Virus record (IMG/VR): IMGVR_UViG_3300016667_000726
Coordinates: 18,083 to 82,082 of that record
Reading direction: 5' to 3' (one strand)
DNA: 64,000 nucleotides
Source: a virus
A program made the position numbers and the translations under genes. The notes under the pieces were generated by a model that had not been told where the DNA came from, made no database searches, and saw only the letters and a list, made by a program, of their open reading frames with translations. Below are positions 1,344 through 42,785 of this stretch, piece after piece. Each line of letters starts with the position of its first letter. Positions within the stretch are counted from its first letter, which is position 1.

Positions 1344-4300
1344 ATGGGAACCGGAGCCAACGTAGAGCGTCTTCATATTCGGCTGTTCCTAGAGGGCGTC
1401 GAGATCCCAGTCATTGCAGCAACCGTCAACTGCTCAATGAACTCCCCCGTGTCTGCGCAGTTTGAGATCGTGCCCACAGATGCCGCCCTCAGGTTTAAGC
1501 CCCGTACGACTGTCCATGCGTTCTTCTTGGATACGTCTGACCCGAAGTACATTGCGGATGAGGATACCGGGCTACTCCCCGTAGGGCCTGATATCTACAA
1601 GCTCCTGTTTTGCGGAGAGGTGTTCGATATCGTATTTTCCAAGAGCGGAGCCGGGTCTCGCAGCATCGTGCTGAACTGCCTGGACTTCTCCTCCCTCTGG
1701 GACACCACGTACATCTACCTCCTGAGATTCGCTACTGGAGTCGGTGACTCTAGTGGGGGCCGGAATGTCGTAAGCGGATCCCAGGCGGTGTTCCTAGGGT
1801 CTCCGGAACTCCTTGACGACACCGGCCTAAACTCCCCGCAGCAGCTCATTGCCAGACTAGCTTCTCAACGCAAGTTTGCGTCCAACCCCGCATTCAACGG
1901 AGTCACCGACAATATTGGTGGCTTGTTGGCGGTCCTTGAGTTGATCGGTGGGATTCCTGGGGCCACGCTAGGGCTCTACGATTGGCAGACCGTCCAGGAG
2001 AGGCGAGTCCGCCTGATGGATCAGATTGGGACGGACTCCGGGCGCACCGCCGCCAAGATCTTTGATCAGACAATCCTAGAGGAATGGCTCGTCAATAGCC
2101 TAGGGCAGTCCGGAGAGTACATCTCGTTCCGGGAGATCATTGAGCAGATTATGGCGTACATCTACTACGGAGTAGCGCCGCAGGCAGTCGCTATCTACCG
2201 GAACGGTACTAGGGCTGTACCTCAGTATCTAGTTCCAACTCCACCCCCTCCTACAACCGGAGCATCGGCGAATCGTCAGCTGGTCAATGTAGACCCAGAC
2301 ATGATTACGGCCTACTACGAATTAGAACGGATCATGCGGGAGACGTACGGGTGGGGCGCCGGGACTAAACCCCCGATGGAGATCACCTCCGCCAACGGGG
2401 GTACCCACGCACCAAATTCGTTTCACTACTATGGGCTAGCATTAGATGTACGACCAGTAGGATTTGCACTAGGAGGCTTCTCGTTCATGAACGGCTCTAT
2501 CCGCGGCCCCACGGGGAGCCTAGCCACTTACCTAAAGAACCCTCAGGCGCACACTGGATGGAACTTCGCTAGAAACCTAGCACGAGAGAACAATATCAAG
2601 ACCAGAGAAGAGTTGGAACGTCAACTAGACGCGTATGGGATGAAGGATAAGTTCCTCACCACAGTCAACTTCTTCGTGGATCTAGGTAAGGCGGTCAAGG
2701 ACTTTAACGGACGTAACATCCCAGCCACGTCTTCTCGAGCAAAGATGCCCTACATTCAGATGAAGTGGGGAAACGCTTTTAAGTCTCAGTCCGTAGACCC
2801 CGCATTGTCCCTCTATGGGTTGAATGCGGACATTGTACATATTGAACTTAGTCCCTCACATAATAGGGAGGCGGGGGTTAACGCTAGCGCATCCCCTCCC
2901 CAAAATGGGGCGGAAAGCACAAGCGGCACAGAGAACGCGCTCTCACCTGCTGAGAGCGTCGCCTACGCGGTGCCTTCGTCAAATTCAAAAGTGGCGAAGT
3001 TGCCTCGCCAGAGGATGTACACGCAGATTTTCCGGCCAGATTGTTGGTTCGTCGCGCCGCCGATGTGTAATGTCATCTTCCCGGAAGAGTACACATCCTT
3101 CTCCTTCCGTCGTCAGATGATGAGAGAAATCACGCGCCTAGAGCTAGATACGTTCAACCTCATGCTCAATGACGCGCTCCTGCGCACAGTCTACTTCGCG
3201 CCCAGGATCAAGGGGTTTGATAGCCTTACGTCATCAGGGAACACCGCAAACAAGCGTCTAGTGTACCTCCACGAGAGGTTCTCTGGCGTGATCCCGAAGA
3301 CGGAGCAGATGCCCGATCTTCCCTTCTACGCGAAGAAGGAGATTGTTGAGCAGGTGAGCGGGTTCTCATCCACGACGGACATTACTCGCGCCGCAGTCGA
3401 TGTGAACGCAACACCTGAGGCATATACCGGAGAGGCAACAAACCTAATCGAGAGGTTTGCGTCTCGCGCCGTTACGTTCCACTTCTTGTCCTACCGCTAC
3501 GCGGCAAGATCCATGTCAGTGAGTGGCCGGTTTATGCCGAGGCTAGTGCTAGGCTTCCCTGGAGCGGTTGTTGATAGGCCGTCGACAGCGGAAGAGCTCC
3601 GACCCATTCACCATCTCGGCATGGTCACTAGTGTCCAGCACAGCATTAACCAGTCAGGCGGGTTTACCTTCGTCTCGTTCAGCCACGCGCGTTCGCACCG
3701 AACTAAGAGGAACGAGATTGATGACCTATTTGCCGAGTACGCTGGAGGTACGGTCTTTGATGTACAAGACCAGGTCACGTCTGGGTCCTTCGACACTGCC
3801 TATACAGGCGGACAGCCGTTGCCCTCCGGCGGATATGAGACTTGGCAGATCAAGCTAGACTCCTGGATTCGGAATCAGATCAAAGTTGTGCGTAAGAAGA
3901 ATGAGCAGATTGAAGCCCGCAACGCGATCAACGAGGCGCAGAGACTAGCAGCCGGAGGAAATCCACCGGCTCCGCCCCCGACATACCCTACATCTGTTCC
4001 CGGTGCGGAGGTCCCTGATCTAACGGAGAGCCCCATCCCTGAGCCGACGTCTTGGTCTGAGGCACAACTGAGAGGTACTGGCCTCGTCGGCCCAAATGGG
4101 AAGAGGTTGGTTAGAGTCGCAATCCAGGGTGCGGCGCCGGTAGAGACGATCATTGAACCGCAAGTTGATGCGAACGGCAATCCGTTCTACGACGCCGCCG
4201 GCGAGATCATCTACACTGAGCGCCCCGGCACTCCAGACCCCTCTAGGCCCTTCTCAAGGGTCTCATTTGATGAGGCTACGAAAGAGGAGGCCCCACTTGA

Positions 4301-15974: not shown

Positions 15975-18236
15975 ATGCCGTCGCCCCCGATCGTCATTAA
16001 TCCTTCTCCTGCCGATGGGGATACCGACGTAGATCCGCTCTCGACCCTCACGTTTGGGGTCAGGGATCCAGACACCAGGGTGCTGCGGTCTTCGATCCAT
16101 ACTGTCCTGTTGTTCCACCGGGTTCACTACATCGGGGACAACCTGCCCAAGTTTGACCAGGCCCTGCGAAGAGGAGAGGGACGGTGGTCCGTCTCGGCGT
16201 TCTCGGACGCCACGATTGTTGGTATCCCCGGCAATCCAGCAACCCAGGCGCTAGTGCCCGCAGGTCTTGAGATCACCAAGAGCTCCGGCATGAAGCAGGA
16301 GTCATTCCTCTTCGCCTCAGACAGGTTTGTGCCGGGCAAGGCATCTGGGGTAGAAGCAAAGGTCAGTGTCTCCTCATGGACTAGAGGGACTACCGACTAC
16401 TACTCAAATTCTGACTTCGCAGGTGTCGTAGTCGGACTGATTAACTGGAAGTACCGCACGGGCATCTTCGCGATGCTCATGGATGATGGGCTCGGAGGCT
16501 ACTACGTAAATCTGGTAGGGCCTGCGTCCACCTCTGGCGGAGCACGGGTCTCACTCCAGAACAACATCGCCGTGGACTGGACTACCGGTTCCTGGAGATT
16601 CAGGTTTGTGTGGGATGACACCCTAGGAGTCGAGTCGGCCTTCTTCATTGCCGACGACGGAACCACAGAGTTGTCATTCATCCTAGATACTGCGGCTCTC
16701 CAGCTCCTCAAGACTCAGCAGTTCCTACCGGGGCTCTTTGTGGCTGGGCATCCTACGGGGCTTCAGGAAGACCGCATCTATGGTGTTGTCGGGATTGATG
16801 GTTCCCTAGGAGATGCACTGACGATCGAGCAGCTCAGCGTCGCGGGGTATGGGGAGCGACTGACTGCGGGAGGAGCAATCCTAGCCGGAGTCTCGGAGGC
16901 TAGCTTCTCGGGCAACTCAGCAGTACCTCTACTGGCCGGAGAGCGAGATTGGCGCCTGATTGGGACTTCCGGAGTTGTCTCAGAGCCCTCAGGGAATGTC
17001 GCACTAGTTGTCCCTCCAGCCGGAGGCGCTGCGTTCTTCCAAAGAGATGAGCCAGACCTAGATCGAGGCTCGTGGATGGTGCTTGGCACTCTTCTAGTAC
17101 CGTCGACCTCGGTAGCTCTGTCCGTCAGGCAGGGGCTTGGCATTGCTGTGTCCGATGGGTCCACCCGGTTTGAGCTGTCGCTCCTAGACGACAACCTCGT
17201 CCGCCGACTTGGGCTATTTACCGGAGGCGCGGGCCTTGATCTGTCCGACTACATCTACGGGGTCTCTGCCGACTGGACAGATCCCTGCTCCGTGGTCATG
17301 ACCGGGGATGCTGGCCTAGATCGGCTGTACGTCGAGTTCAATGGCGATGCGTACATCGACACGTCGTATTCCGGAAGCGGCGCGGCAGTATCGTCTGATA
17401 CGAGCGTTGAGGTGGGGCTCCTCTACAGCTCCGTGAATAAGCGCGAGCTCCAGATCGGAAGCCTGTGGGTGTTTCCCACGGCCCTTTTTGCAGAGCCCCT
17501 TCTCACTACCCTCCCAGATTCTCAAGGCTGGACTCTGGAGCAGACAGGATCTCCGAGCTCAACGATCACAATCGTGGACGATGAGTACGTCATCGACTGT
17601 GCGCCCTACCCAGGAGAGTACCTCTACTACACGGTCGTTCCACCAGCGAACGAGACTGAGGTGTTCGCGGCAGGAGCCCTGTTCTTTAGACTGCACCTAT
17701 CAGAGTGGTCAAACATCTACGGAGCGCCCTCTCCGACAAACTCCGAGATTGGGCCGATCGCCGCGATCGCAGTGGGGGACGTCTACAGCGTCCACATGTG
17801 CCTAGTACAATCTAGCAGCGGACAGGGCTTTGCTTACCTGCGCACGGAGTCAGGAATCCTAGCCGACGTGTTGGCGCAGAACCCGGTGGGCAAGAAGGTA
17901 TCTGCCCTCGTAGACCTAAGCACTCCGCACTCCTACTTCCTAGACGTGCGCCCCGGTAAGTACGTTAGGCTTTACATCGACTTCGACAGCGAGCCCTCCA
18001 TCAACATTCCGTGGGACCAGTTCTTGCTCGCCAGCTCTATCCTTCCTTCCGGCGCGGTAGCGGCGTTTGGATCCCTAAATCCGGACTGCCCCATCACAGG
18101 TACTTACTCCTTCTGTAGGTCGGGCAGAGGGAGAGGTTATGATGTACGCGCGACTCTTCGGATCCCAGAAGAGTCCATTCTCCTGTGGGCGTACGACTCT
18201 CACGCCACGCTACTCGTTGACCTCGAGGACAGCTGA
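15975..18236 (+). CDS. Virion structural protein with N-terminal Ig-like domain (753 aa)
   Basis: Strong SD (GGAGGTAGGAGG); N-terminus PIVINPSPADGDTDVDPLSTLTFGVRD is bacterial-Ig-like; the remainder is beta-rich. Confidence 0.55.
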   Translation: MPSPPIVINPSPADGDTDVDPLSTLTFGVRDPDTRVLRSSIHTVLLFHRVHYIGDNLPKFDQALRRGEGRWSVSAFSDATIVGIPGNPATQALVPAGLEITKSSGMKQESFLFASDRFVPGKASGVEAKVSVSSWTRGTTDYYSNSDFAGVVVGLINWKYRTGIFAMLMDDGLGGYYVNLVGPASTSGGARVSLQNNIAVDWTTGSWRFRFVWDDTLGVESAFFIADDGTTELSFILDTAALQLLKTQQFLPGLFVAGHPTGLQEDRIYGVVGIDGSLGDALTIEQLSVAGYGERLTAGGAILAGVSEASFSGNSAVPLLAGERDWRLIGTSGVVSEPSGNVALVVPPAGGAAFFQRDEPDLDRGSWMVLGTLLVPSTSVALSVRQGLGIAVSDGSTRFELSLLDDNLVRRLGLFTGGAGLDLSDYIYGVSADWTDPCSVVMTGDAGLDRLYVEFNGDAYIDTSYSGSGAAVSSDTSVEVGLLYSSVNKRELQIGSLWVFPTALFAEPLLTTLPDSQGWTLEQTGSPSSTITIVDDEYVIDCAPYPGEYLYYTVVPPANETEVFAAGALFFRLHLSEWSNIYGAPSPTNSEIGPIAAIAVGDVYSVHMCLVQSSSGQGFAYLRTESGILADVLAQNPVGKKVSALVDLSTPHSYFLDVRPGKYVRLYIDFDSEPSINIPWDQFLLASSILPSGAVAAFGSLNPDCPITGTYSFCRSGRGRGYDVRATLRIPEESILLWAYDSHATLLVDLEDS

Positions 18237-29763: not shown

Positions 29764-29807
29764 CTAAAGAAGAACCCCCAGGAGACTTGCTTCTGGGGGC
29801 CTTCTTC
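29763..29807. terminator. Rho-independent terminator between convergent operons (probably bidirectional)
   Basis: Stem CCCCCAGGAG-ACTTG-CTTCTGGGGG extended by GAAGAA/TTCTTC; on the minus strand it is followed by TTCTTCTTT. Confidence 0.75.
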
Positions 29808-29979
29808 ACTCGATGCTGTTGCGCGCCAAGTGGCTGATCATCTGCGTGGGCGGTGCGTTGACGTCTACATAGAAGTTCAACTCATCTCCCGCGAATCTAA
29901 TCAGCTGCTGAACGCCCATAGCCTTGAGCTCATCTAGGATGACGATCTTGGAGGAGACCGGAGCCTCCTCCTCGATCAG
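29806..29979 (-). CDS. 57-aa -1-frame extension of the charge-repeat protein (HeH/Rho-N-like domain)
   Basis: Open frame LIEEEAPVSSKIVILDELKAMGVQQLIRFAGDELNFYVDVNAPPTQMISHLARNSIE*. An in-frame stop at 30010-30012 and no ATG/GTG/TTG before the slip site; the TGA abuts the terminator. Confidence 0.7.
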   Translation of the reverse strand: MIEEEAPVSSKIVILDELKAMGVQQLIRFAGDELNFYVDVNAPPTQMISHLARNSIE

Positions 29980-29985
29980 TTTCCC
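29950..29985 (-). promoter_or_regulatory. Programmed -1 ribosomal frameshift signal
   Basis: Slippery heptamer G GGA AAC (29985-29979) in the 0-frame immediately before TGA, a 7-nt spacer, then a 9-bp stem GGAGGAGGC-UCCG-GUCUCCUCC with a cUCCGg tetraloop. Confidence 0.75.
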
Positions 29986-31055
29986 CCGTTGATGTAGCTC
30001 TCGAGGCTCTCATCCAGGCTGAGGACATTGCTGATCTTGTCCTTCTTGCCGAGCTGGAAGTAGTCGTTGGCGATGAACGCGATGGCCTGACCCAGAGTTT
30101 CCGTCTGCGTCAGGATGCGGTCGATCTCGACGTTCAGCTTGCTGAGGGCCTGGATCGCCTCGCTGTTGCCGTCGACCTGCTTACGGAGGTCGGCGATCAA
30201 AGCCACAACCGCAGCTCCGCCATCACCAGTGCCCGTATCGGCAGGCTTGCCGCGACGGCCACGGCCCGCAGGCGCGGTCTCCTCCTCAGCAGGCTCCTCC
30301 GCGACCTCTTCGGCCTTGCCACGGCGACCGCGGCGGGCGGCGGGCTCTTCAGCCACTTCCTCCTCCGCAGGCTTGCCGCGACGGCCGCGACGGGGAACCT
30401 CCTCAGGCTCCTCTTCCTCGACGGGGGCCTTCTCCTCCGCCGCAGGACGACGCCCACGACGAGGCGCGGGAGCCTCCTCTTCCTCTTCGGCCACGGGCTT
30501 GCCCCGGCGACGAGGCGCGGGAGTCTCCTCCTCTTCCTCCTCAGCCTTGGCAGCAGGGCGCCCACGACGAGCCGCAGGGGCCTCCTCCTTCTTCTCGACC
30601 TTGCCGACAGGCTCGCCGCCGTCATCCCCGATCTGCTCGAGGATCTCTAGCAGCGCATCAAGGTCGTTCTGCGCGACGACCTCTTCGAGATCGACATTGA
30701 ACTCAGCCACGTGAGACTGAAGCGCCTCCGCCATGGCCTTCGCGGGCATCTGGAACGCCTTACGCGTGTCCAGGACTCCGAGCTTACGGCCAATCTCACC
30801 AAGGGCGCCACGAACGGTCTGCGGCTTGCGCGACATGTACTCTCCTTCTCGTCGTTTGGGGAAAGGTCCTCTGAGTAGTACCCAGGGGCCTATGAGGTCC
30901 GTCATGTCGGCGCGGGCCTTGATGACGGACAGGTGGGCATTCTCAAACACAGCGCATGAGTCGAGGTCCACCAGCATTTGAAGATCAACGCTAGGGCACT
31001 CGCTCAGTCGACTGCACGACTGACAGGACGGCTCAGGTTTATGGGCCGTCCTCAC
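29976..31055 (-). CDS. Charge-repeat (RRGRRGK / poly-E) putative nucleoid/DNA-binding protein
   Basis: Six alternating basic (RRGRP, RRGRRGK) and acidic blocks between helical domains. Two plausible starts: GTG 31055 (coupled, adds a Cys-rich 73-aa leader) and ATG 30836 (AAGGAG SD). Confidence 0.6.
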   Translation of the reverse strand: MRTAHKPEPSCQSCSRLSECPSVDLQMLVDLDSCAVFENAHLSVIKARADMTDLIGPWVLLRGPFPKRREGEYMSRKPQTVRGALGEIGRKLGVLDTRKAFQMPAKAMAEALQSHVAEFNVDLEEVVAQNDLDALLEILEQIGDDGGEPVGKVEKKEEAPAARRGRPAAKAEEEEEETPAPRRRGKPVAEEEEEAPAPRRGRRPAAEEKAPVEEEEPEEVPRRGRRGKPAEEEVAEEPAARRGRRGKAEEVAEEPAEEETAPAGRGRRGKPADTGTGDGGAAVVALIADLRKQVDGNSEAIQALSKLNVEIDRILTQTETLGQAIAFIANDYFQLGKKDKISNVLSLDESLESYINGGN

Positions 31056-40354: not shown

Positions 40355-41380
40355 TTACCCCTTCGGGTTTGATCGTTTGACTCGCGCCACGAGCTCGGGG
40401 TGAAGCCGAGTGAAGTGGCTGAATGGAATTGCGTTGTCTACTGCTGCGGTAAGCTCATCAGGCGACAAGTCGTCTGGCTGGAGCTTGGGGTCGTCTGAGG
40501 GGTAGCGGATTACGCGAACCCTTGTCTTCCCGCGCAGCTTATAACCGCTTCTTAGTGTTCCGAGTAGCCCTGCCTCGTTGTTATCGAGACATAGGACCAC
40601 CGTCCCACCAAGATGCTCTAGGAACCTCAGCTGCTCATCCGTCGCAGTGCTGCCCAAGATGGCCCCTGTAGTTGGGTAGCCATTCTGGACCATCCAGAGG
40701 CAGGCCTTGAAGCCTTCAGTCACGTATGTTGTAGGCTTAGGCCCTTCAGCAAGGAAGGCGGGGTAGATGCGGTCGCAGCGCCACACGAGTTTCCTCGGGT
40801 CTAGGTCCTGCCCGCGATACCCAAGCTCCTCCAACTCTGTCGTGTAGATCTTGTACTTGGGTCCATCCCCAGACAGCCTCTTTCCGGAGATGCCTGCCAA
40901 GTACCCGTCAACGTCTCGCAGAGGAAAGGTGATTCGGTTTCTGTCTTGGTCTACTCCTATGTCGTTGTCTTGCAGTACCCACTCCTCAAAGCCCTCCTTG
41001 ATCAGCTCTTCTGGGACCCAGTCGAACAGTCCAAGGATGCGCTCCGGGATGGGATGCTCAGTCCGAAACAATCCCACACCATCTCTAGAGAGAGGCGTGG
41101 CCTTCCTGACTCCGGGCTTCTTCAGCGAGCGCTTGACCTTCTCAAACGCCCTTTCGGCTTTGGTAGCCGTCGTGACGTTCTTGAGGAAGCTGAAGAGCGC
41201 GCCGCCTCCGCAACCTGCGAAGCAGAACCACTGACCCGTCTCCGTGTTCACGCTGAGTGAGCGCTTCGACGTCTTCGGATCCTCTCCGTGGATAGGACAG
41301 AACCCTACGTAGTTGCTGCCTGCGCTGGCTTTGAGACCCGGAACATACGTCTCGAAGATCTCAAGCACGCCCTGGCTCAT
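40355..41380 (-). CDS. dnaG: DNA primase (CHC2 zinc finger + TOPRIM)
   Basis: CPIH...SLSVN...WFCFAGC; VTEGFKAC; LCLDNNEAG. Confidence 0.9.
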   Translation of the reverse strand: MSQGVLEIFETYVPGLKASAGSNYVGFCPIHGEDPKTSKRSLSVNTETGQWFCFAGCGGGALFSFLKNVTTATKAERAFEKVKRSLKKPGVRKATPLSRDGVGLFRTEHPIPERILGLFDWVPEELIKEGFEEWVLQDNDIGVDQDRNRITFPLRDVDGYLAGISGKRLSGDGPKYKIYTTELEELGYRGQDLDPRKLVWRCDRIYPAFLAEGPKPTTYVTEGFKACLWMVQNGYPTTGAILGSTATDEQLRFLEHLGGTVVLCLDNNEAGLLGTLRSGYKLRGKTRVRVIRYPSDDPKLQPDDLSPDELTAAVDNAIPFSHFTRLHPELVARVKRSNPKG

Positions 41381-41381
41381 G

Positions 41382-42785
41382 CTACTTCCTTAGACGAGAT
41401 TTGCCTCTAGTGAGCTTAGTTGGATGCGCCGGAGTCTGTGTGGGTGCGGCAGGAGCTGCGTCTCCGCTACGCCCATCAACCTTCTCGGCGTTCTCGAAGA
41501 ACTCCTTGACGTTGACGGTCGCAGACCGAAGTGAGAAGTCCTTGCCTGGGATCGCGTTGATCACGAATGGGGACATGTCCCCATCACGTACACCCGGGAA
41601 CATGAACATCAGCATCGGATGGCCCTCGGGAGCTTTGCCCTTGACCACCTGCATGACGATGTCCGCATCCTGGCCGATCGCATCAGCGAACGCGATGTCA
41701 GAGAGGTCGGAGCCTCCCTTGTTCTGCGCAGCTGCACGATTTGCCTGACAGGTGCCGATGATCGGCAGGTCCATCTCCAGAGCAAGCTCCTTGATGTCTG
41801 CCGACACGTTGCCGACCGTCTTCCAGTCGCGATCCTTCTTACCTGAGCGCGCATCCCTCATGAGGTAGAAGCCGTCCACCACCAGCAGATCCGGCTCGAA
41901 CTTCTCGATTCGAGCGCGGAGACTGTCGATCGTGGAGCCGCCACGTACGCCCTTGTCGGACAAGAACAGAAGTCCTGGCTTACGCTGGGTGTCCTCTGCC
42001 CATGTCTGCTCAAGGTCCTCAAGGTCCGCGAGCACGTCGAAGAAATGATCCTCGTCCTCGGGAGACAGCGAGCCCGTACGGATCTCGCCGTCGTCCAGCT
42101 TGGCGACGATGGACGCACACCTGCGGCGCATCTGCTTGACGGTCATCTCCTTGGAGTAGACCGCTACGCGCTTGCCGCAGTCTAGGTACGCATGTACGGC
42201 GATCGCACACGCTACCCACGTCTTCATCTGCTTCGGCCTTGCGAAGACGACAACGAACTGGCCGGGTTGAAGTCCGCCGGTCTCCTCATTGAGCGGTCCC
42301 CATGGGTAGGAGATGCCAACGATGCCACCTGCGTGCTTCATCGCGTCGTAGTCGGCCCGCATTTCCTCAGCCGCTCGGGACAGCAGAGAGCCGCCCGAGT
42401 CTGAGAACTCTACAAGTGTGTCTCGGAGCTGCGGGATGTGCAGTTGGAGTGCCTCCTCGGGATCTTCATCCCCAGACTCCAACTTCTCCAGCAGATCCTC
42501 AAGCACCTGAAGCGCCTCAGATCGAATGTTGTTGCTCCGTAGCTCACGTAGCTGGGCCGAGATGGGATCTCGCGAGGGACAAAACTCGAACTGAGGAAAC
42601 TTCCTCAGGAACCGAGTCTTGGATGGCACAGCTCCGTCTTTCTTGACCTCGTCGAACAGCCACCGAAACGCAGAGTGGCCATCCTCCGTCAGGAAGTGAT
42701 CTGGGACCGTGCCCGTGGAGTGGACTGTGCGCCAGTCCCCTTGTTCAATGATGTTTGAGATCAGTTGTAGTTCTACGTGCGCCAT
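41382..42785 (-). CDS. dnaB: DnaB-like replicative helicase
   Basis: LNEETGGLQPGQFVVVFARPKQMKT, YSKEM, VVDGFYLM, TCQANR, IGQDADIV. Confidence 0.9.
   Translation of the reverse strand: MAHVELQLISNIIEQGDWRTVHSTGTVPDHFLTEDGHSAFRWLFDEVKKDGAVPSKTRFLRKFPQFEFCPSRDPISAQLRELRSNNIRSEALQVLEDLLEKLESGDEDPEEALQLHIPQLRDTLVEFSDSGGSLLSRAAEEMRADYDAMKHAGGIVGISYPWGPLNEETGGLQPGQFVVVFARPKQMKTWVACAIAVHAYLDCGKRVAVYSKEMTVKQMRRRCASIVAKLDDGEIRTGSLSPEDEDHFFDVLADLEDLEQTWAEDTQRKPGLLFLSDKGVRGGSTIDSLRARIEKFEPDLLVVDGFYLMRDARSGKKDRDWKTVGNVSADIKELALEMDLPIIGTCQANRAAAQNKGGSDLSDIAFADAIGQDADIVMQVVKGKAPEGHPMLMFMFPGVRDGDMSPFVINAIPGKDFSLRSATVNVKEFFENAEKVDGRSGDAAPAAPTQTPAHPTKLTRGKSRLRK

Follow-up and report, generated by a model that had tools for sequence, protein, structure and literature searches.

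To our knowledge, programmed ribosomal frameshifting in tailed phages has been documented almost only for tail chaperones and for accessory domains of capsid and tail proteins. The shift site between genes G and T of lambda is G_GGA_AAG, a heptamer that is highly shift-prone in Escherichia coli, while haloarchaeal viruses use both G_GGA_AAC and G_GGA_AAG as G-T shift sites (PMC5009743). In some bacterial dnaX genes the 0-frame stop codon stands right after the shift site and the long product is made by frameshifting (PMC5009743). Scattered frameshift predictions for non-tail genes of phages have come from PRFect, and none of them matches the case described here.

That case lies in a 64,000-nucleotide (nt) stretch of viral DNA (hereafter the window: positions 18,083 to 82,082 of IMG/VR record IMGVR_UViG_3300016667_000726). 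The full record is 123,674 nt long, is estimated to be ~67% complete, and belongs to a phage found in freshwater, aquatic and estuary metagenomes (14 studies); among RNA runs, none clearly covers the locus. The end of one minus-strand gene of this phage – the last gene of an operon for replication and recombination – very probably carries a canonical programmed -1 ribosomal frameshift that would yield a minor long isoform: this reading was first put forward by a prediction made from the letters of the window alone (the original prediction), and the comparative evidence set out below supports it. The mechanism is a known one. New are the gene family and the genomic module in which it occurs, the nature of the appended domain, and the fact that annotation splits the product. 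The features on which the argument turns are the following.

29976..31055, minus strand: the 0-frame gene, final gene of the replication/recombination operon, recognized from the list of open reading frames (ORFs), its coding N-terminus, a Cys motif and its operon neighbors.

29979..29985, minus strand: slippery heptamer G_GGA_AAC, an X_XXY_YYZ motif in phase, with GGA and AAC as 0-frame codons.

29976..29978, minus strand: 0-frame stop codon TGA, directly adjoining the heptamer.

29944..29977, minus strand: putative stimulatory hairpin, comprising an upper stem of 9 base pairs (bp) and a lower stem of 4 bp, from folds.

29806..29979, minus strand: -1 extension ORF (P0002), 57 codons from CTG 29979 plus the stop codon TGA 29808-29806.

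29815..29937, minus strand: small three-helix domain (extension residues 15-55), from an AlphaFold2 model and a motif conserved across lineages; unclassified.

29917..29919, minus strand: in-frame ATG, Met21 of the extension, where gene callers start an ORF of 37 amino acids (aa).

On the minus strand the 0-frame gene ends AAC GGG GGA AAC TGA (29990-29976). The spacer between the heptamer and the upper stem of the hairpin is 7 nt (29978-29972), which falls inside the 5-9 nt range of canonical -1 signals. The upper stem pairs GGAGGAGGC (29971-29963) with GUCUCCUCC (29958-29950), one of the nine pairs being G.U, and is closed by a UCCG loop (29962-29959); below it, GAUC at 29977-29974 pairs with GAUC at 29947-29944, and an alternative register for this lower stem (UGAU with GUCA) fits about equally well. 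The fold energy of -32.7 to -34 kcal/mol (z ~-3.4) was equalled in 0-1 of 200 shuffles. The -1 frame contains a TGA 24 nt before the heptamer and, ahead of the slip site, none of the start codons ATG, GTG and TTG; beyond that site it runs on for 57 codons to a TGA (29808-29806) that directly adjoins a GC-rich hairpin and T-run (29805-29766). Each of these elements had been described in the original prediction, from the gene tail, the in-phase heptamer and the 7-nt gap to the GAUC/GAUC extension and the -1 stop at the terminator, and each was found again in the sequence. Only the transframe peptide (...INGKLIEEEAP...) had been misread: it should be ...INGGN-LIEEE... if both tRNAs slip in tandem, or ...INGGK-LIEEE... 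if slippage is confined to the P site.

Compared with gpG/gpGT of lambda and its counterparts in tailed phages and haloarchaeal viruses, the locus has the same or nearly the same heptamer (G_GGA_AAC in the window, and G_GGA_AAG in two of the distant lineages introduced below, L013 and L014). As in those systems, the slip would fall in the last codons of the upstream ORF, the minor long form would contain the whole of the short form, and the arrangement is retained across relatives of little sequence similarity (PMC5009743). Unlike them, however, the gene belongs to a replication/recombination operon rather than a tail module, the appended part is a domain of ~40 aa rather than a T-like domain, and the window has a clear 3' hairpin. 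No hit to a PHROG or Pfam family, no similarity of sequence or fold and no position between major tail and tape-measure genes connects the gene with the tail chaperones. A second point of comparison is provided by the structural proteins of phages to which domains are appended by frameshifting (Ig-like domains, gene 10 of T3/T7, Lactobacillus phage A2): here too a small accessory domain would be carried by a fraction of the molecules (PMC5009743). In the window, though, that domain is predicted to be helical and not Ig-like, its carrier is non-structural, R/G-rich and predicted to be largely disordered, and, unlike the Ig-like cases, its relatives yielded no variant with the domain fused in frame (none in the 45 family and candidate proteins collected). 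The third comparison is with those bacterial dnaX genes in which tau is made by -1 frameshifting: these share with the window gene an association with replication, a stop codon that adjoins the shift site and, in the proposed reading of the window gene, a 3' stem-loop stimulator and a longer product that depends on frameshifting (PMC5009743). The window gene differs from them in having no homology to DnaX, in its heptamer (G_GGA_AAC, not A_AAA_AAG), and in that no upstream Shine-Dalgarno-like stimulator was identified.

The heptamer is not significant by itself, because a similar arrangement – an in-phase X_XXY_YYZ within the last 10 codons, together with a long -1 run – is seen in three of the window's 146 stop-to-stop ORFs that are 100 codons or longer (one of the three being a spurious ORF inside a real gene). 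Significance comes from comparison with relatives. The close set consists of seven homologous proteins (77-97% identity) with recovered DNA and one further locus, and is represented by ten independent assemblies. None of the ten departs from the 12 nt GGGGGAAACTGA, whether by substitution or indel, and all seven proteins end YINGGN. Synonymous difference among seven of the assemblies is 0.41 overall (at most 0.53 per pair), yet the last six 0-frame codons show zero synonymous change against the 0.41 per site expected, and only one codon-invariant run in the gene is longer. Glycine codons tell the same way: 24 glycine columns are conserved in the seven distinct sequences and eight of these are codon-invariant, six with the preferred GGC and two – the only invariant non-GGC codons of the 24 columns – being the GGG and GGA of the slip site. 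Contigs from three other runs likewise have no indel at the site, and neither a substitution nor an indel across 29806-30089. Because the site is identical in the ten assemblies and in these three runs, neither a sequencing artefact nor a private mutation can account for it. A metagenome scan gave only the one further locus, a word-based protein search limited to the C-terminal domain gave no new homologues, and a scan of genome contigs and a blastn search of the phage collection gave no match.

The longest run of codons without synonymous change in the seven diverged relatives is found elsewhere in the gene. It spans ten codons (NDYFQLGKKD, 30039-30068, minus strand), lies ~55 nt upstream of the slip site, and could be either an RNA element or a stretch of strongly preferred two-fold codons.

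Evidence that the -1 ORF is itself coding comes from the pattern of change within it. In all relatives with sequence that far, the ORF is open and leads into the homologous domain: stops in this frame, which would have spoken against the original prediction, were not encountered. Over the part of the ORF that starts with the D/V-E-L-K-A-M segment, the ratio of nonsynonymous to synonymous change (pN/pS) is 0.069 in the -1 frame, as against 3.0-4.2 in the other frames; the -1 ORF is under strong purifying selection, as a translated sequence would be. Across the first 15 extension codons – the linker, which overlies the hairpin – the sequence varies freely and the frame is kept, even across a 3-nt insertion.

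The hairpin shows a different kind of conservation. Seven of the nine pairs of the upper stem never vary among close relatives; of the other two, one alternates between A-U and G.U and one is an A.C mismatch in a single relative (L006). The loop, on the other hand, may be UCCG, UCGG, UACG, UUUG or a 7-nt loop that contains the 3-nt insertion, and the flanks vary too: since this variation alters -1-frame residues, the constraint on the stem arms is one that acts at the level of RNA. In the lower stem L007 has exchanged U-A for C-G, the one double change there, and in another close relative (L002) a hairpin with a z of -5.7 starts immediately after the heptamer.

A distant family of proteins with the same architecture and ~21-45% identity was found by a profile search of 1.84 billion representatives and a second, word-based search. 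DNA was obtained for eight further loci representing eight lineages (L012-L016 and L018-L020; L020 and L021 are the same), making nine lineages with the window clade. Scans of IMG/VR viral contigs with A1, P0002, A5, A7 or A9 found nothing; the scan with A8 was the only one there to return loci. At the junction of the two frames these lineages have the following.

L012: GGG GGA AAC TAG.

L013: GGG GGA AAG TAG.

L014: GAG GGA AAG TAG, with only G3A3.

L018, L019 and L020 (=L021): in-phase G_GGA_AAC within an invariant block of 13 nt, 13 codons ahead of the 0-frame stop.

L016, positions 3403-3624: no canonical heptamer; U_UUC_CCG followed by GAG TAG.

L015, positions 1468-1682: no heptamer.

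An in-phase G_GGA_AAC or G_GGA_AAG is thus present in seven of the nine lineages, down to ~21-35% protein identity, and the stop codon (here TAG) adjoins the heptamer directly in L012, L013 and L014 also. In all nine lineages the extension domain is in the -1 frame (alignments A5 and A11; the L012 contig ends 65 nt past the stop). Slip site and -1 stop are 54-58 codons apart in those lineages that have both the heptamer and a contig long enough to include the ORF end; differences in linker length across lineages are always of whole codons, with the Asp of DVN found at codon 39, 39, 37, 46 and 47. Hairpins unrelated in sequence start 7-8 nt after the heptamer position in L012, L013 and L016. 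The hairpin of L013 (3535-3601) starts 8 nt after G_GGA_AAG; it is exceptionally stable, with a fold energy of -51.4 kcal/mol (z -9.1), and holds the ATG of the extension within its 3' arm. A pseudoknot considered for L012 was dropped, its connecting loop being too short.

These observations suggest how the two products would be made. When ribosomes translating the last gene of the operon arrive at the heptamer, the P site would be occupied by Gly-tRNA paired with GGA and the A site by Asn-tRNA paired with AAC, and the hairpin, its main stem 7 nt downstream, would be positioned at the mRNA entry channel. The majority would read on to the adjacent TGA and release a short protein of 359 aa; a fraction would slip one base back, so that the tRNAs pair with GGG and AAA, and would then read 57 further codons in the -1 frame, CTG being the first. 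The long form, of 416 aa, would carry at its C-terminus a flexible linker and the small three-helix domain. Because a long coiled-coil helix is predicted in the part common to both forms, the two probably co-assemble, in which case frameshifting would hold tagged relative to untagged subunits at a fixed low ratio, as for gpG/gpGT of lambda. The role of the extension domain is probably to tether nucleic acid or a partner.

Several findings weigh against a programmed frameshift of this kind. In E. coli, which may not be the host, A_AAC is a weaker A-site motif than A_AAG. The upper stem has no true compensatory double change and its covariation does not exceed that of shuffle controls, so that support for the structure comes from invariance and from positional conservation in distant relatives. 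Folds of L014 gave no significant structure downstream of the heptamer, and in L018-L020 structures are weak or more distant. Neither L015 nor its relative P0031 has a slippery heptamer, and that of L016 (whose lineage is marked by proteins ending YVFPE, P0016-P0019) is only U_UUC_CCG, which is not known as shift-prone: the extension domain can therefore be reached, or retained, without a canonical site. Lastly, the Met encoded by ATG 29919 is kept in seven lineages and has a purine-rich stretch just upstream. What the original prediction had proposed to look for among homologues is found for the most part: the heptamer is in all close relatives and in most lineages, the exceptions being L015 and L016; the stem has invariant arms and analogous hairpins in several distant lineages, with weak support from covariation and no significant equivalent in L014.

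L015 (P0014/P0031) deserves separate consideration. Here the -1 frame opens just 2 codons ahead of the stop, and none of the starts ATG, GTG and TTG occurs in it before the conserved domain is reached. Between GAC, the last sense codon, and a strong hairpin stands the stop UGA, and immediately beyond the hairpin comes a -1-frame GAU (1518). The layout recalls the take-off and landing sites in the bypassing of T4 gene 60, a likeness that for L015 is speculation from the arrangement of the sequence. If the L015 domain is made, its synthesis would call for translational bypassing or for a frameshift mechanism not yet described. We attach a small probability to the idea that the family reaches its -1 domain by more than one recoding route, L015 doing so by one of these two.

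Of the explanations that do without a programmed frameshift, the one that survives best is that the extension ORF is a separate small gene, encoding a 37-aa peptide translated from ATG 29919 – perhaps by reinitiation after the TGA – and that the heptamer is incidental. Gene callers annotate an ORF of 36-43 aa from this Met in several relatives, the Met is conserved in the seven lineages already mentioned (of eight in which the extension was readable), and the purine-rich stretch (AAGG or GGAG) stands 0-3 nt upstream of the ATG. That distance, however, is too short for a normal Shine-Dalgarno site, and in L013 the ATG is buried in the -51 kcal/mol hairpin. The Met is replaced by Leu in L015 and by Arg in L016, with L015 having no canonical start of any kind before the domain. 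Conservation, moreover, extends upstream of the Met: residues ahead of it are conserved across lineages (V-x-[IV]-[DE]-x3-L-x-x-M), changes between L019 and L020 in this region are mostly synonymous in the -1 frame, and helix 1 of the AlphaFold2 model (residues 15-20) precedes Met21. Were the gene independent, the nine lineages would have no need to keep the -1 frame open from the preceding gene onward despite indels of whole codons, nor seven of them to retain G_GGA_AAN. Met21 is thus probably an internal residue of the extension domain, and a separate gene is an unlikely account of the locus. Because the Met is conserved and has purines upstream, some independent initiation at ATG 29919 may nonetheless occur; as the main route to the domain, which would have refuted the original prediction, it is improbable.

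Alternatively, ribosomes that terminate at the 0-frame stop might reinitiate at the CUG that overlaps it (CUGA), giving a separate 57-aa protein and no fusion. The window clade, L015, L018 and L020 all have CTGA, preceded by a G-rich run that could function weakly as a Shine-Dalgarno-like site. In five lineages, however, the sequence is [C/G]TAG, and neither CTA nor GTA is a start codon; CUG is itself a very poor initiator in bacteria; and reinitiation at CUG leaves unexplained the conserved heptamer 13 codons ahead of the stop in L018-L020. We regard this explanation as very unlikely. A change of frame in the nucleic acid rather than in translation – an indel from sequencing or assembly in the G5A3 run, a disrupted gene, or slippage of RNA polymerase – has only the short homopolymers of the slip site (G5, A3) to suggest it, and is scarcely credible given that no indel was seen in any assembly or run, that distant lineages have the same -1 arrangement (including L014, with just G3A3), that purifying selection on the -1 ORF contradicts an artefact, and that transcriptional slippage in bacteria requires runs of ~9 A or T (PMC5009743).

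With a programmed -1 frameshift as the preferred reading, the nature of the appended domain becomes of interest. The AlphaFold2 model of the extension has helices at residues 15-20, 23-34 and 44-55, with a mean predicted local distance difference test (pLDDT) score of 73.5. Three variants of the extension gave no Pfam hit at E<=10, and its profile (A5) gave none against PDB sequences at the same threshold. A Foldseek search of PDB and BFVD with the model returned nothing significant (E of at least 0.7), and the named entries among the weak matches were enriched in Rho N-terminal, SAP and HeH/LEM domains. By VIA-align the model gave a Z of 3.2 to Rho (1a62, residues 5-44) and of 3.0 to both SAP (1h1j) and LEM (7ndy), values level with those for unrelated folds. 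The extension is thus like the SAP, LEM, HeH and Rho N-terminal domains in its size of ~40 aa, its similar predicted helix pattern and its L-x-x-L-x-x-M...L...A motif, and unlike them in having no sequence match at E=10 and a structural Z of only ~3. That the extension adds a domain, as originally predicted, agrees with the three-helix model; "helix-extended-helix-like" is reasonable as a description of that modelled fold, membership of the class not being demonstrated. A search of the literature found no link between frameshifting and such a domain in phages. Within the 124-kb record the profile of the extension matches itself only, with no paralogous tag detectable at E<=10.

The 0-frame gene probably starts at GTG 31055, which overlaps the stop codon of the preceding gene as GTGA and gives the 359-aa product, rather than at ATG 30836, from which a 286-aa form (P0001) would be made. 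The 73 codons preceding ATG 30836 are open in all relatives, have a pN/pS of 0.21 in frame as against 1.1-3.0 in the other frames, and encode a C-x2-C-x5-C ... C motif common to distant homologues. ATG 30836, which has a strong GAAGGAGA site, may be an internal start. In the AlphaFold2 model of the 359-aa protein the Cys-rich N-terminus is poorly predicted; a helical domain (residues 81-143) is followed by a disordered region (residues 145-276), in which R/G-rich repeats (RRGRRGKP-like) alternate with acidic runs, and by a long helix (residues 279-332). Searches of Pfam and PHROGs gave no match for either the 0-frame part or the extension, a fold search with the full-length model assigned the protein to no known family, and scores in the protein atlas were uninformative (at most 0.82). 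The name "nucleoid protein", used in the original prediction, is a guess based on composition that none of these searches bears out.

Upstream in the same minus-strand operon are genes for a primase, a family A DNA polymerase (PolA), an HNH endonuclease, a UvsX/RecA-like recombinase, a Cas4-like exonuclease, a RusA-like resolvase and a 100-aa protein. With these neighbors the frameshift gene is not a tail or head gene, as had been claimed from the outset. The primase gene (40355-41389, minus strand) has an in-phase A_AAC_CCG two codons ahead of its stop and an open -1 run of 63 codons, an arrangement that is probably due to chance. The operon ends in one further feature.

29766..29805, minus strand: terminator-like GC hairpin and T-run, at the operon end and shared with a convergent plus-strand gene.

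This hairpin is retained in relatives in which the sequence of the stem differs (alignment A2), a pattern that suggests compensatory evolution. A simple scan for terminators gave it no score because its loop is longer than the limit of the scan.

The finding has several consequences. One is a concrete correction to annotation, since gene callers split the product into one ORF and an orphan ORF of 36-43 aa. For the study of frameshift efficiency in bacteria, the family supplies naturally occurring G_GGA_AAC and G_GGA_AAG sites that come with a variety of stimulators, and the lineages that lack the heptamer and retain the -1 domain are a testable entry to alternative recoding. For the phages themselves – uncultivated and from freshwater – it places a phylogenetically conserved, canonical -1 signal in an operon for replication and recombination, and defines what would be a new protein family with two isoforms, in which a Cys-rich N-terminus is followed by a helical domain and then by R/G-rich and acidic repeats and a coiled coil, the small helical tag being present in one isoform only.

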